Source: Escherichia coli
Lineage (GTDB): Bacteria > Pseudomonadota > Gammaproteobacteria > Enterobacterales > Enterobacteriaceae
Direction: 5' to 3' (one strand)
Assembly: GCF_003334815.1 (NCBI RefSeq)
Contig: NZ_QOWO01000074.1
DNA length: 5,190 nt
A program made the translations under genes and the position numbers. The notes under the pieces were generated by a model. It had not been told where the DNA came from. It worked only from the letters and a program-made list of their open reading frames with translations, and did no database searches. Shown here one piece after another: positions 2,272 through 5,190 of the stretch. The first letter of the stretch is position 1. The number at the start of each line of letters is the position of its first letter.

Positions 2272-2292
2272 ATGCCAAACTGGTGCTCGAAT
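2272..2292 (+). CDS. Host gene exon 1 (7 codons, MPNWCSN) of an intron-interrupted hypothetical protein
   Basis: Strong Shine-Dalgarno GAGAGGAG (2257..2264) 7 nt before ATG at 2272. The 7 codons end exactly at the inferred intron 5' junction and join in frame to the long open frame beginning at 4699. Depends on the inferred intron boundaries. Confidence 0.4.
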
Positions 2293-2900
2293 GTGCGACA
2301 TGAAGTCGTCTGAATAATTGTTCCAGCGGAGTTCGATTCCGTCAGGGAACCTGATGTTCCGTCATCAGTAGCCTACTGACACATGCGTCACTGGTAACGG
2401 TGGGGTGTGAAGCTGTCAGGACAATGAAACCGGATCTTCGGATCGCATGAAACCGTGAGGTTACATGTAATCTGCCAGCATCAGGCGGAGGAGGTCTAGG
2501 CTCGGTAGCATGACTAACATATGTGAACTGCTGAAGCGTCGTTAACCAGAACAAGCCAAAGATGCTGACAGGCTTGAACCAAAAGGTATGTGGTTGGTTA
2601 CTCCTCTGTTTGCTAGGGGTACACGGACAATAAACCACCGGTGTTGTGAGCAGAGTCTAACCTACTGTTGTTATTCAGGTGGAACATGGTAAGCCCGTAT
2701 CGCTGCCTCGTGAGGCAGGTTAACCGCAAGGGATACTGTTGGCGGTGCGGGTAAAAGAAGGTGGAAAAAGCGAATGCCAGTCTGTAATGGACCGGATAAG
2801 GGTTGAGCCCGGCAACATTACCCTACGCGAAAGCGGGCAGACTTCCACTGGGTCTTTCATTACGAGAGAGTTTGAGTAATCTTCCAGAAAGGAAAAGCAG

Positions 2901-4625
2901 ATGACTGAGCAGGCTACAACCTGTAAAGGTGCGTCCTTACTTAACGGTGACTCCTGGCACAGTATCAACTGGCGTCAGTGCTATCGGGAAGTGCGGAGAC
3001 TGCAAGCGCGTATCGTAAAGGCAACACGAGAAGGTAAACATGGCAAGGTCAAATCCTTGCAATGGATACTGACTCACTCGTTTAGTGGCAGAGCAGTTGC
3101 TGTCAGACGAGTTACAGAGAATAGCGGGAAACGTACTCCTGGGGTTGATGGTCAGACATGGTCTTCCCCGGAGGTTAAATTTCTTGCTATTAACCTGCTG
3201 AAACGGCGTGGTTACAAACCACAGCCACTTAAGCGGGTTTATATACCTAAGTCAAATGGGAAGTCTCGTCCCCTTGGGATACCCACTATGAAGGATCGGG
3301 CGATGCAGGCGTTGTATTTGCTGGCTCTTGAGCCCGTTGCTGAAGTCACTGCTGACCAGAGATCCTTCGGCTTTCGGACTGGAAGGTCTACTGCAGATGC
3401 GATAGCACAGTGCTTCTGTGTTCTTGCGCAGAAAACATCCGCTGAATGGGTGCTTGAGGGGGATATACGGGGATGCTTTGACAATATATCTCATCAATGG
3501 CTAATCGATAACACCTCAACAGACAGACAAATCCTGACAAAGTGGCTTAAAGCGGGTTACAGGGAAAATGGGCAGTTATTCCCTGTAAATTCAGGAACTC
3601 CTCAGGGGGGAATAATTTCTCCTGTACTGGCTAACATTGCTCTGGATGGACTGGAGGCGCTTCTTGCGTCGGAGTTTAAAAAGAGAACAGTCAAGGGACG
3701 ATTGGTTAACCCGAAAGTTAACTATGTGAGATATGCTGATGATTTTATTATCACTGGAGAGTCAAAAGAACTTCTTGAGTCTCAGGTATTACCCGTCGTC
3801 AGGCGGTTTATGGCTGAAAGAGGATTAATGCTTTCTCCTGAAAAGACGAAAATCACACATATCGAGGAAGGATTTGATTTTCTTGGACAGAACATTCGCA
3901 AATATGGCGGTAAGATGCTGATCAAACCCTCTAAAGCCAATGTCAGTTCCTTTTTAAAGAAAATACGCGCTGTAATCAAAGGCAACAAAGCTATGGATCA
4001 GCTTACGTTGATCCGCATGCTGAACCCAATGATCAAAGGGTGGGCGGCTTACCATCAACACATTGTGGCCAAGGTCGCATTTAACAAAGTTGACAATGAG
4101 ATCTGGCTGGCTTTATGGCGTTGGGCCGTTCGGCGTCATCCCAATAAGGGAAAGAAGTGGATTCGGAAAAGATATTTCCATCAACAAGGTGCCCGAAACT
4201 GGTCTTTCTCCGTGGCTACCGGAGAACTCCTTGCCAACGGTAAGCCTCAGTATGCAAATCTGAGGAAAGCAATCGATACGCCTATCAACCGGTTTAAACC
4301 GATTAAAATCGCAGCTAATCCGTTCGATCCTCAATGGGAGATGTACTTTGAGGAGCGTTGTGCAGACAAAATGCGGCACAAACTGCAAGGACGGAAAAAG
4401 CTCATTCAAATCTGGTTTGAGCAGCGGGGCCGATGCCCCATATGTGATGAGAGGATTACATCTGATTCCCAGTGGCAGGTTCATCACATCATACGGCGAG
4501 TCGATGGAGGGAGCGACTGCCTCTCCAATTTGATTATGCTGCATCCGATGTGTCACACACTTGTTCATGCGAAAGGTATACATGTAGTGAAACCGGCTCA
4601 TGAGAGTGGGCTTAGAAAGGCTTGA
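2901..4625 (+). CDS. Group II intron-encoded protein: reverse transcriptase / maturase / HNH endonuclease, 574 aa
   Basis: ORF-track protein has RT motifs (RVYIPKSNGKSRPLGIPTMKDR, GCFDNISH, SGTPQGGIISPVLANIAL, VRYADDFII), a maturase X region (MIKGWAAYHQH) and a C-terminal HNH/Cys module (CPICDERI...HHIIRRVDGG...CHTLVH). SD AAGGA 7 nt upstream. Stop overlaps the first bases of domain V. Confidence 0.95.
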   Translation: MTEQATTCKGASLLNGDSWHSINWRQCYREVRRLQARIVKATREGKHGKVKSLQWILTHSFSGRAVAVRRVTENSGKRTPGVDGQTWSSPEVKFLAINLLKRRGYKPQPLKRVYIPKSNGKSRPLGIPTMKDRAMQALYLLALEPVAEVTADQRSFGFRTGRSTADAIAQCFCVLAQKTSAEWVLEGDIRGCFDNISHQWLIDNTSTDRQILTKWLKAGYRENGQLFPVNSGTPQGGIISPVLANIALDGLEALLASEFKKRTVKGRLVNPKVNYVRYADDFIITGESKELLESQVLPVVRRFMAERGLMLSPEKTKITHIEEGFDFLGQNIRKYGGKMLIKPSKANVSSFLKKIRAVIKGNKAMDQLTLIRMLNPMIKGWAAYHQHIVAKVAFNKVDNEIWLALWRWAVRRHPNKGKKWIRKRYFHQQGARNWSFSVATGELLANGKPQYANLRKAIDTPINRFKPIKIAANPFDPQWEMYFEERCADKMRHKLQGRKKLIQIWFEQRGRCPICDERITSDSQWQVHHIIRRVDGGSDCLSNLIMLHPMCHTLVHAKGIHVVKPAHESGLRKA

Positions 4626-4698
4626 GCCGTATGCCGGGAAACTGGCACGTACGGTTCTTAGGGGGCGGTGATGCAGTAATGCATCACTGCTACCCGAT
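4624..4698 (+). ncRNA. Group II intron catalytic domain V and domain VI (branch-point helix) up to the 3' splice site
   Basis: DV: GAGCCGUAUGCCGG-GAAA-CUGGCACGUACGGUUC (4624..4657). DVI: 15-bp helix 4661..4675 / 4680..4695 with GUAA loop and a single unpaired A at 4692, six nt before the ...GAU 3' end. Confidence 0.8.
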
Positions 4699-5190
4699 CG
4701 TATGTATTTTTCTGGTGAACCAGCACAGATCGCTGAGATTAAACGACTGGCCAGCGGTGCAGTCACACCGCTTTATCGCCGCGCCACAAATGAAGGTATT
4801 CAGCTGTTTCTGGCCGGAAGTGCCGGACTTCTGCAGATCACTGAAAATATCCGCTCTGAGCAGTGCCCCGGAGTGACGGCTGCCGGACGTGGTGCTGTAT
4901 CACCGGAAAATATCGCGTTCACCCGCTGGCTGACACACCTGCAGAACGGTGTACTGCTGGATGAGCAAAACTGCCTGATGCTGCATGAACTCTGGCTGCA
5001 GAGCGGTACTGGACAGCGTCGCTGGGAAGAGTTACCGGATGATGTCAGGGAAACTATCACTGTGCATTTCACCGCAAAAAGAGGTGACTGGTGTGACATC
5101 TGGGGTAACGAGGATGTATCGGTGTGGTGGAACCGTCTGTGTGACAACGTACTGCCGGAAAAAACCATGCCGTTTGACCTGCTGACGGTT
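4699..5190 (+). CDS. Host gene exon 2: hypothetical protein of unknown function (partial; continues beyond the window end)
   Basis: Frame beginning at 4699 (CGT ATG TAT ...) is open for 164 codons to the window edge: R-MYFSGEPAQIAEIKRLASGAVTPLYRRATNEGIQLFLAGSAGLL...WWNRLCDNVLPEKTMPFDLLTV. Not in the ORF track because it has no stop in the window. Composition is protein-like. I recognise no family from memory. Confidence 0.55.

Follow-up and report, generated by a model that had tools for sequence, protein, structure and literature searches.

The window, a 5,190-nucleotide stretch of an Escherichia coli contig (NZ_QOWO01000074.1), almost certainly carries the group II intron EcI5 (subgroup IIB1, CL1) in intact form on its plus strand at 2293..4698, where it is inserted at the canonical homing site in a DUF1281 gene of an IncK/B/O/Z-type conjugative plasmid. 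The intron is an already known element and not a discovery: EcI5 has reportedly been known since 2002, its target rules are said to have been mapped in 2009, and it is sold commercially as a targetron, a gene-targeting tool. The target rules were mapped again in 2021 (Monachello et al., 2021, PMC8643678). The present analysis establishes the identity of the intron as EcI5, its boundaries, the integrity of its motifs, and the location and pairing of its exon-binding sites (EBS). A previous interpretation made from the letters alone (the sequence-only reading) had proposed an intact, apparently mobility-competent, endonuclease-encoding group II intron, and this proposal is supported by the open reading frame, its motifs and the near-identity to EcI5.

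Identity and boundaries of the intron

The EcI5 copy of plasmid pO157 from E. coli O157:H7 (E.c.I5; AB011549.2, 35666-38071) aligns with the intron over its full length at 99.6% identity (2,397/2,406 nt). Both have the same length, insertion site, flanks, EBS2 and EBS2a; the nine nucleotide differences comprise one in the ribozyme (C17U) and eight in the ORF. It is this near-identity to the pO157 reference, together with the shared homing site, which places the intron in EcI5. The plasmid backbones differ, being of IncK2/Z type for the window and non-mobilizable IncFIA/FIB for pO157 according to MOB-suite typing. A copy on an IncK2/Z plasmid of E. coli ECOR 3 (NZ_LT985320.1) is 100% identical to the window intron.

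Both intron ends are exact. The 5′ end, GUGCG at 2293, and the 3′ end, ...CUACCCGAU (...GAU) at 4698, fit the GUGYG/AY termini of group II introns. A ligated-exon query of 400 nt (200 + 200 nt) was searched against plasmid records and was found uninterrupted and 100% identical in intron-less plasmids; 4,068 plasmid records (PLSDB) match it without a break over 80% or more of its length. Excision at the limits proposed in the sequence-only reading restores the contiguous sequence of intron-less plasmids, which contradicts its suspicion that the 5′ boundary might be slightly off. In intron-less plasmids the DUF1281 CDS is annotated across the junction. The insertion point lies after codon 7 of this gene, in the plasmid leading region; its product had no family match in NCBIfam. 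RefSeq annotates in the window region only ltrA and a truncated DUF1281 CDS whose start is placed at the ATG directly following the intron. Beyond this, the annotation of the window is now settled (Table 1).

Table 1. Features of the EcI5 copy and its flanking exons in window coordinates.
Feature	Position	Strand	Basis
5′ exon: codons 1-7 of the host gene DUF1281 (MPNWCSN)	2272..2292	+	ligated exons in frame
Distal 5′-exon target bases C-18, C-17 (2275-2276), A-15 (2278), A-14 = IBS2a (2279)	2275..2279	+	
IBS2 CTGGT, -13..-9	2280..2284	+	5/5 Watson-Crick with EBS2; retained at the two ectopic EcI5 sites
IBS1 TCGAAT, -6..-1	2287..2292	+	pairing with EBS1
Complete group II intron EcI5, 2,406 nt	2293..4698	+	near-identity, empty-site comparison, Rfam
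Domain I: basal helix 2299-2302/2685-2688; IA, IB, IC, ID inside	2299..2688	+	RNAalifold
EBS2a U2543 (U251), pairs with A-14	2543	+	family covariation
EBS2 ACCAG, intron nt 253-257	2545..2549	+	complementarity, family covariation
Upper ID3 hairpin ACUCCU/AGGGGU, 9-nt loop CUGUUUGCU	2600..2620	+	
EBS1 GUUUGC, intron nt 316-321	2608..2613	+	covariation, terminal loop of ID3
EBS3 G2646 (G354), pairs with C+1	2646	+	family covariation
Domain II	2693..2752	+	RNAalifold helix 2693-2704/2741-2752
Domain III	2755..2856	+	RNAalifold helices 2755-2766/2843-2856
Intron-encoded protein (IEP) ORF in domain IV, 574 aa: RT, X/maturase, HNH	2901..4625	+	uninterrupted; Pfam, TIGR04416
Domain V: 34 nt, AGC triad, GAAA loop, 2-nt bulge	4624..4657	+	RF00029, fold
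Domain VI with branch-point A at 4692	4661..4695	+	fold
IBS3 = C+1 (4699); T+5 (4703)	4699..4703	+	both found at each of the three distinct EcI5 insertion sites
3′ exon: rest of the DUF1281 gene, running off the window	4699..5190	+	in-frame ligated exons, intron-less plasmids

Ribozyme, protein and classification

The six-domain organization of the ribozyme is evident from Rfam model RF02012 and from helices I(i), I(ii), IA-ID, II and III of an RNAalifold consensus fold, computed for seven of the eight aligned related introns. RF02012 matches domain I at 2350-2496 (IB/IC) with 133 bits (E 3.9e-29), and RF00029 reaches 66 bits (gathering score 40; E 6.7e-12). The Rfam covariance search suggested in the sequence-only reading was thus positive for both models, and the GUGCG 5′ end, textbook domain V and single bulged A in domain VI which it had described were recovered where it had placed them. 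The fold of domains V and VI has a z-score of -8.1 and leaves one A unpaired, A4692, which lies seven nt upstream of the 3′ splice site. The sole change relative to pO157 outside the ORF, C17U (window 2309), turns a C-G pair with G2679 into U·G and keeps the pair.

The full-length RT-X-HNH reading frame had also been read correctly. Pfam assigns four domains to the protein (RVT_N 19-98, RVT_1 115-332, GIIM 349-426, HNH 512-557), and the NCBIfam equivalog for group II RT/maturases, TIGR04416, scores 372 bits versus a cut-off of 300. Inactivating substitutions in the YADD or HNH motifs, which had been named beforehand as an argument against an active element, were not found: YADD at residue 278, CPIC (CxxC) at 512 and HH at 528 are intact. 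Three amino acids differ from the pO157 protein, all at variable positions (N223K, V438T, D539N; window to pO157). At residue 539 the Asp of the window is the residue found in related proteins, closer to the family consensus than that of pO157.

The intron belongs to subgroup IIB1 and the CL1 RT lineage. Within ID, EBS2 occupies a multibranched internal loop and EBS2a lies two nt further upstream; the 3′ exon is recognized through EBS3, likewise in ID, instead of through a δ next to EBS1. The CL1 assignment is based on the nearest solved RT (TeI4h, 6ME0 chain C). Introns of class C (IIC) are marked by a short domain I without EBS2, a site after a terminator hairpin and the lack of an En domain. 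This class, already dismissed in the sequence-only reading, is rejected by the covarying EBS2, the presence of the HNH domain and the insertion inside a coding sequence.

The best match among solved relatives of the protein is chain C of 6ME0 (E 4e-200); LtrA scores 3e-40, with a match that spans only residues 66-255 of the IEP. The former belongs to the Thermosynechococcus TeI4h/Th.e.I3 RNP (PDB 6ME0, 6MEC), which shares the IIB1-CL1 subgroup and RT lineage as well as the EBS1/EBS2/EBS2a/EBS3 architecture with EcI5 (PMC8643678). However, TeI4h is thermophilic, has ~50% sequence identity to EcI5, and its protein recognizes targets less stringently (PMC2882425). Several related IIB1/CL1 introns from other Enterobacteriaceae plasmids (lineages L008, L009/L010 and L013) share RF02012 with EcI5, with domain I ~70% and proteins 51-58% identical. 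They likewise sit in plasmid leading regions, but have their own EBS sequences and target sites, and several are antisense to neighbouring leading-region genes. An example is the 2,343-bp intron of pHN7A8-type IncFII-33 plasmids (PMC8765060).

Exon-binding sites

The exon-binding pairing, which the sequence-only reading had left partly open, can now be given with coordinates for EBS1, EBS2, EBS2a and EBS3. All four covary with the exons, as judged against permutation in 59 related intron lineages (34 for the EBS3 column). The coordinates of EBS1 and EBS3 were derived here, from lineage covariation and two ectopic EcI5 insertions.

The EBS2-IBS2 pairing proposed previously proved correct. In addition to the complementarity of both partners, 3.85 of 5 pairs are formed across the family versus 2.08 upon permutation (z 12.8). 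The loop bearing EBS2 (2542-2551) sits between helices 2537-2541/2640-2644 and 2552-2557/2571-2576. Nucleotide A258, which adjoins EBS2 on its 3′ side (PMC8643678), corresponds to window position 2550, in agreement with EBS2 ending at nt 257. The location of EBS2a two nt upstream of EBS2 in EcI5 (PMC8643678) fits U2543, for which 0.71 Watson-Crick pairs were observed versus 0.26 permuted.

For EBS1, domain I was scanned for stretches of 5 to 8 nt complementary to the end of the 5′ exon. No Watson-Crick hexamer turned up at the expected place, and the top complements (2331-2336, 2870-2875) lie outside ID and are no better than chance. The sequence-only reading had reported an EBS1 gap; it was right that a 6-bp Watson-Crick partner is missing, but a partner, GUUUGC, does occupy the expected ID3 loop. 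With UCGAAU it forms the series G·U, U-A, U-A, U·G, G-C and C×U. The search for six Watson-Crick pairs failed because of the two G·U wobbles and the mismatch at -6; EBS searches need to tolerate G·U pairs and helices of five pairs. Covariation with exon positions -6..-1 amounts to 4.95 of 6 pairs versus 2.54 permuted (z 15.5). In all 59 lineages the homologous hexamer is found in a terminal loop closed by at least six pairs, with differing stem sequences and a modal loop size of 9. A single-sequence fold of the ID3 region gave an uninformative alternative (z -0.72); the hairpin emerged only when related sequences were compared. With ~-1 kcal/mol, the EBS1-IBS1 duplex is weak and takes rank 44 among the 59 lineages. 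The two true ectopic EcI5 copies, in gpU and in a permease gene, are inserted at ...CTGGTGATCAAAT/C and ...CTGGTTCGTAAAC/C (slash, junction) with TCAAAT and GTAAAC as IBS1. The match to GUUUGC is improved at -4 in both sites, and in the permease site at -1 and -6 as well.

The EBS3 column was found by anchoring on the conserved CCGG after ID3 in 34 lineages. It is Watson-Crick to +1 in 32 of them, with all four pair combinations represented (permuted mean 8.9, maximum 18). Other EBS3 candidates were discarded: nt 110 in the IC stem, from a scan of eight sequences aligned with MAFFT, was a chance match, a one-column misalignment having hidden the true column, and neither the 3′ strand UAAC nor the conserved 12-nt bulge AACAUAUGUGAA (2516-2527) covaries with +1. 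A pairing of GUUUG with CAAAC at -17..-13 was also rejected, as the ectopic sites carry CATAC and CCTAC there.

That EBS1 might be the IA loop GUUCGA (2331-2336) and not the ID3 loop has practically no chance of being correct, even though GUUCGA pairs 6/6 with UCGAAU (five Watson-Crick pairs, one G·U) and is the best match in domain I. In 600 nt, chance alone would give about 1.2 such 6/6 matches, as estimated from the pairing odds per IBS1 base, and two were seen; it is the ID3-loop columns which covary with IBS1 in the 59 lineages, and the ectopic TCAAAT and GTAAAC fit GUUUGC better and GUUCGA worse. To our knowledge, IA is not an exon-binding site in any group II intron. With EBS1 in the ID3 loop, the EBS1-exon helix has only three Watson-Crick pairs, two G·U pairs and one mismatch, and its energy falls in the weaker third of the family. 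An ectopic (retrotransposed) insertion into a poorly matching site, as considered in the sequence-only reading, would explain this. We regard it as extremely unlikely: between -30 and +20 the flanks do not differ from the pO157 site, the reference homing site of mobility assays and natural EcI5 target with a retrohoming efficiency of ~88% (PMC8643678). Every published critical target base is present in the window flanks, namely C-18, C-17, A-15 and A-14 (PMC8643678, PMC2882425) and T+5 (PMC2882425). Many independent plasmid backbones, among them IncF, IncK2/Z and pO157, carry the intron at the same site, whereas the genuine ectopic copies have sites differing from the canonical one.

A decaying, immobile fossil which merely looks intact is likewise very unlikely. 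The three amino acid changes and the one ribozyme change relative to the tested pO157 copy would be compatible with decay, and other plasmids do carry truncated EcI5 fragments. However, the ORF is unbroken with all catalytic motifs conserved, C17U keeps its base pair, and residue 539 is nearer to the family consensus in the window than in pO157. Moreover, identical or near-identical copies occur in ~150 plasmids and 128 E. coli genomes. Roughly 96% of the plasmids carrying the site have it empty (~4,068 empty versus ~154 intron copies in PLSDB), which is consistent with an active but non-saturating element.

Splicing, mobility and the leading region

From the established group II pathway and published EcI5 experiments, the following course may be proposed. 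The intron would be transcribed within the DUF1281 mRNA, and the 574-aa protein translated from domain IV would bind it as a maturase. The ribozyme would then splice by branching at A4692, with the 5′ exon presumably held by EBS1-IBS1 (UCGAAU), EBS2-IBS2 (CUGGU) and EBS2a U2543-A-14, and the 3′ exon by pairing of EBS3 G2646 with C+1. The lariat-protein particle could reverse-splice into intron-less DUF1281 alleles via the same pairings, the protein additionally recognizing C-18, C-17, A-15 and T+5. HNH would cut the bottom strand and the RT would copy the intron into DNA (retrohoming).

Splicing and mobility of the window allele (U17; N223, V438, D539) are predicted from the literature on the 99.6% identical copy. 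Splicing has been published for the pO157 copy (PMC8643678, PMC6003770), and retrohoming of EcI5 was ~100% in another study (bioRxiv 10.1101/2024.12.23.630110). In one reporter construct splicing was only 17% and host mRNA was reduced (PMC6003770); efficient DUF1281 expression is therefore not assured. Lowered host-gene expression is a property shared with Ll.LtrB (PMC6003770), which is also a mobile intron in a gene of a conjugative plasmid (the pRS01 relaxase gene), encodes an En-plus protein, and retrohomes by target-primed reverse transcription as EcI5 does. Ll.LtrB differs in belonging to group IIA and the ML lineage, another structural class, with δ-δ′ instead of EBS3-IBS3 and EBS2 in a terminal loop.

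Upstream of EcI5 there is a long imperfect hairpin (2077-2241), which looks like a putative leading-region single-strand promoter (Frpo/ssi-type); the intron interrupts the first gene after this hairpin, 21 nt into its sequence. We see a small chance that the IIB1 intron family exploits the leading region, being transcribed in the early-expression burst when a plasmid enters a new cell. If so, RNPs would form early enough for the invasion of intron-less alleles on resident plasmids, and EcI5 would also throttle a leading-region gene. Under such conditions the weak, wobble-rich EBS1-IBS1 pairing might be tolerated, or perhaps even favoured because it would limit re-attack of the spliced mRNA.

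Identity and integrity of the intron

By its sequence, the intron at 2293–4698 is EcI5 itself, an already known element. It matches the copy on the IncK2/Z plasmid of E. coli ECOR 3 (NZ_LT985320.1) at 100% identity and the pO157 copy of O157:H7 Sakai (AB011549.2, 35666–38071), from which the experimentally studied EcI5 comes (PMC8643678), at 99.6%. Compared with the pO157 copy, the intron has nine nucleotide differences. One of these affects the ribozyme (C17U, window 2309) and turns a C-G pair with G2679 in helix I(ii) into U·G; the remaining eight are in the ORF and lead to N223K, V438T and D539N (window to pO157). When six related intron proteins were aligned with it, all three residues proved variable; these proteins carry Asp at residue 539, as the window does. 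Over its full 5.2 kb the window shares 99.9% identity with the ECOR 3 plasmid, and its arrangement recurs in 47 plasmid records. At least 80% of the intron is present in 154 plasmid records and in 128 of 5,426 complete E. coli genomes.

The intron begins with GUGCGACAUG at 2293 and ends with CUACCCGAU at 4698. The complete group II intron proposed by the sequence-only reading stands with exact coordinates; the covariance search which that reading had called for matched both RF02012 (domain I) and RF00029 (domains V–VI) (Table). Its 34-nt domain V and its domain VI with a single bulged A were likewise recovered, by the RF00029 match and by folding. The ORF, as had been noted, is uninterrupted: profile search identified RVT_N, RVT_1, GIIM and HNH domains, and the protein scores 372 bits against the NCBIfam group II RT/maturase equivalog (curated cut-off 300). 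The inactivating substitutions considered earlier for the YADD and HNH motifs are absent, as YADD (aa 278), CPIC (512) and HH (528) are all unbroken. Among solved structures the protein is closest to the TeI4h/Th.e.I3 maturase-RT (6ME0 chain C, E = 4e-200), with LtrA much more distant (3e-40); this ranking is consistent with the CL1 lineage. Because EBS2 and the HNH domain are present and the insertion lies within a coding sequence, the intron is not of class C, again in line with the first reading. EcI5 shows every family feature that can be tested from sequence.

Table. Coordinates of features in the window and in compared loci
Feature	Location	Description
Domain I match	2350–2496	Rfam RF02012 group-II-D1D4-7, 133 bits, E = 3.9e-29
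Domains V–VI match	4622–4698	Rfam RF00029, 66 bits, E = 6.7e-12
Domain V	4624–4657	34-nt hairpin
Domain VI	4661–4695	fold with single unpaired A at 4692, 7 nt ahead of 3' splice site
Intron ORF	2901–4625	574 aa; sole long ORF within intron
ID3 terminal loop	2606–2614	CUGUUUGCU, closed by ACUCCU/AGGGGU
impCAB-like operon	3–1878	minus strand
DinI-like gene	1633–1878	minus strand
UmuD-like gene	1199–1633	minus strand
UmuC-like gene	3–1196	minus strand; continues beyond window
Long imperfect inverted repeat	2077–2241	arms 2077–2103 / 2215–2241; between impCAB-like operon and DUF1281 start
Ectopic full-length EcI5	L003 301–2706	E. coli O157 chromosome, prophage gpU; antisense to gene
Ectopic full-length EcI5	L004 301–2706	O157-lineage chromosome, amino-acid permease gene; sense orientation
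Related IIB1/CL1 intron	L008 2544–4947	plasmid leading region
Related IIB1/CL1 intron	L009 and L010 2539–4881	plasmid leading region, adjoins ssb
Related IIB1/CL1 intron	L013 2427–4785	plasmid leading region, adjoins hok/sok and psiAB

Boundaries and homing site

Having found no EBS1 partner, the sequence-only reading had considered a slightly shifted 5' boundary or a non-optimal, ectopic site. The scan of domain I confirmed its starting point, as no Watson-Crick hexamer complementary to TCGAAT is present there. Neither explanation fits the flanks, however. When 200 nt from each flank were joined and searched against plasmids, this 400-nt junction was contiguous and 100% identical in the intron-less plasmids H61 and H62, and therefore both intron boundaries are exact. 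In total, 4,068 records, with an annotated DUF1281 gene, span at least 80% of the junction in one piece. The joined exons are in frame (ATG CCA AAC TGG TGC TCG AAT / CGT ATG ...), with the insertion after codon 7. Between -30 and +20 both flanks match those in pO157 exactly, and every base that has been reported to be critical when EcI5 retrohomes (C-18, C-17, A-15, A-14, T+5) is found in the window. The insertion thus occupies the canonical homing site and is not ectopic.

An in-frame ATG lies at 4702–4704, four nucleotides past the 3' splice site. RefSeq starts the DUF1281 CDS of intron-bearing plasmids at this codon, which leaves the first eight residues of the real protein out of the annotation.

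Exon-binding sites

EBS2 is ACCAG (2545–2549), as proposed earlier. In EcI5, A258 lies directly 3' of EBS2 and EBS2a two nucleotides upstream of it (PMC8643678); intron nucleotide 258 is window 2550, which agrees with EBS2 ending at 2549, and the spacing makes U2543, opposite A-14, EBS2a.

The EBS1 of a IIB intron is expected in the terminal loop of ID3. From the sequence of this loop we assign EBS1 to GUUUGC (2608–2613), predicted to pair with UCGAAU by G·U wobble at -1, U-A pairs at -2 and -3, U·G wobble at -4 and a G-C pair at -5, with a C/U mismatch at -6. The duplex is weak (about -1 kcal/mol), ranking 44th of 59 lineages, and is no outlier. GUUCGA (2331–2336) and GUUUGA (2870–2875) pair with IBS1 at six of six positions including G·U; both lie outside ID. 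Chance alone should give about 1.2 matches of this kind per 600 nt, so we treated them as coincidence.

The assignment was tested in two independent ways, on other EcI5 insertion sites and by covariation among relatives. The compared sites, in the O157 prophage gpU gene (...CCATA CTGGT GA TCAAAT/C), in the chromosomal permease gene (...CCTA CTGGT TC GTAAAC/C) and in the DUF1281 allele of other plasmids (TCAAAT/C), have CTGGT, A-14, C+1 and T+5 in common with the window. At every other site, -4 is A instead of the window's G, which improves pairing with GUUUGC. At the permease site, C at -1 and G at -6, each in place of T, also improve pairing, but at -5 (T for C) a G·U wobble replaces G-C. Codon 6 of DUF1281 is polymorphic, the synonymous TCG/TCA difference falling at window 2289 (position 297 in L005 and L006). 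This is IBS1 -4, where TCA pairs U-A with EBS1 compared with U·G in the window; EcI5 occupies both alleles. Among the ectopic copies, NZ_CP028693.1 has a second, candidate place.

For covariation we used seven plasmid introns with domain I about 70% identical, plus 120 loci found by scanning species-representative genomes for a conserved domain I motif. At each locus the 5' splice site was located, and the 3' site where the contig allowed, and the ID3 region was aligned; pairs were counted over 59 distinct lineages, with exons permuted among introns as null. The EBS1 columns formed 4.95 of six pairs with exon -6 to -1 (permuted 2.54, z 15.5), and the EBS2 columns 3.85 of five with -13 to -9 (permuted 2.08, z 12.8). 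EBS2a was Watson-Crick to -14 at a frequency of 0.71 (permuted 0.26). Every one of the 59 lineages has its EBS1 hexamer in a terminal loop with at least six closing pairs of differing sequence. G2646, the fifth nucleotide past the conserved CCGG which follows ID3, can form a Watson-Crick pair with nucleotide +1 of the 3' exon in 32 of 34 lineages, and each of the four possible pairs occurs, against a permuted mean of 8.9 and maximum of 18; this identifies it as EBS3. Of the loops sought by the first reading, EBS3 is located by covariation and EBS1 supported by it; EBS1 is not the 6-bp Watson-Crick partner envisaged.

Mobility and plasmid surroundings

The intact ORF, catalytic motifs and ribozyme and the near-identity to the tested pO157 copy support the earlier view of a probably mobile intron. 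From group II biology and the published work on that copy, the window EcI5 would be expected to splice as a lariat and to retrohome, the latter by reverse splicing, HNH cleavage and target-primed reverse transcription. Retrohoming of the pO157 copy to the same target reaches about 88%, depends on YADD and requires EBS2a-IBS2a (PMC8643678); a second figure for EcI5 is about 100% (bioRxiv 10.1101/2024.12.23.630110). In one study EcI5 reduced host mRNA and reporter protein and spliced at just 17% in the construct used (PMC6003770), and DUF1281 is therefore probably expressed at a lower level from the window's plasmid. The gpU copy, being antisense to its gene, cannot be spliced from gpU mRNA.

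Immediately upstream of DUF1281, the arms of the inverted repeat are 27 nt long and 81% complementary (ssDNA fold z -5.05). The location and shape of the repeat are like those of Frpo/ssi single-strand promoters in plasmid leading regions (PMC11541004), and it is a candidate for one. The same plasmid has a further, weak copy (74% over 73 nt) at L002 10017–10085, 5' of its antirestriction gene. In the impCAB-like mutagenesis operon, the UmuD-like and UmuC-like genes overlap as ATGA at 1196.

The one loose thread is that this intron family recurs in plasmid leading regions beside candidate single-strand promoters. The related introns of L008, L009, L010 and L013 are about 70% identical to the window's in domain I, and those of L008–L010 run antisense to the neighbouring genes. 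The L008 intron lies between a hypothetical gene beside DUF1380 and one beside DUF1281, a gap which holds a DNA methylase gene in intron-less relatives. L009 and L010 carry copies of the same intron and, at 2509–2538 of each, share IBS2 but differ in the last seven exon bases (GTGGGCG versus GGTGCGC); EBS1 of this intron, GCGCAC, pairs with the L010 version only. The IncFIA plasmid that carries the L010 intron also has, about 1.3 kb away from it, the RT gene of another group II intron of a different kind (L010 1–1277, minus strand).
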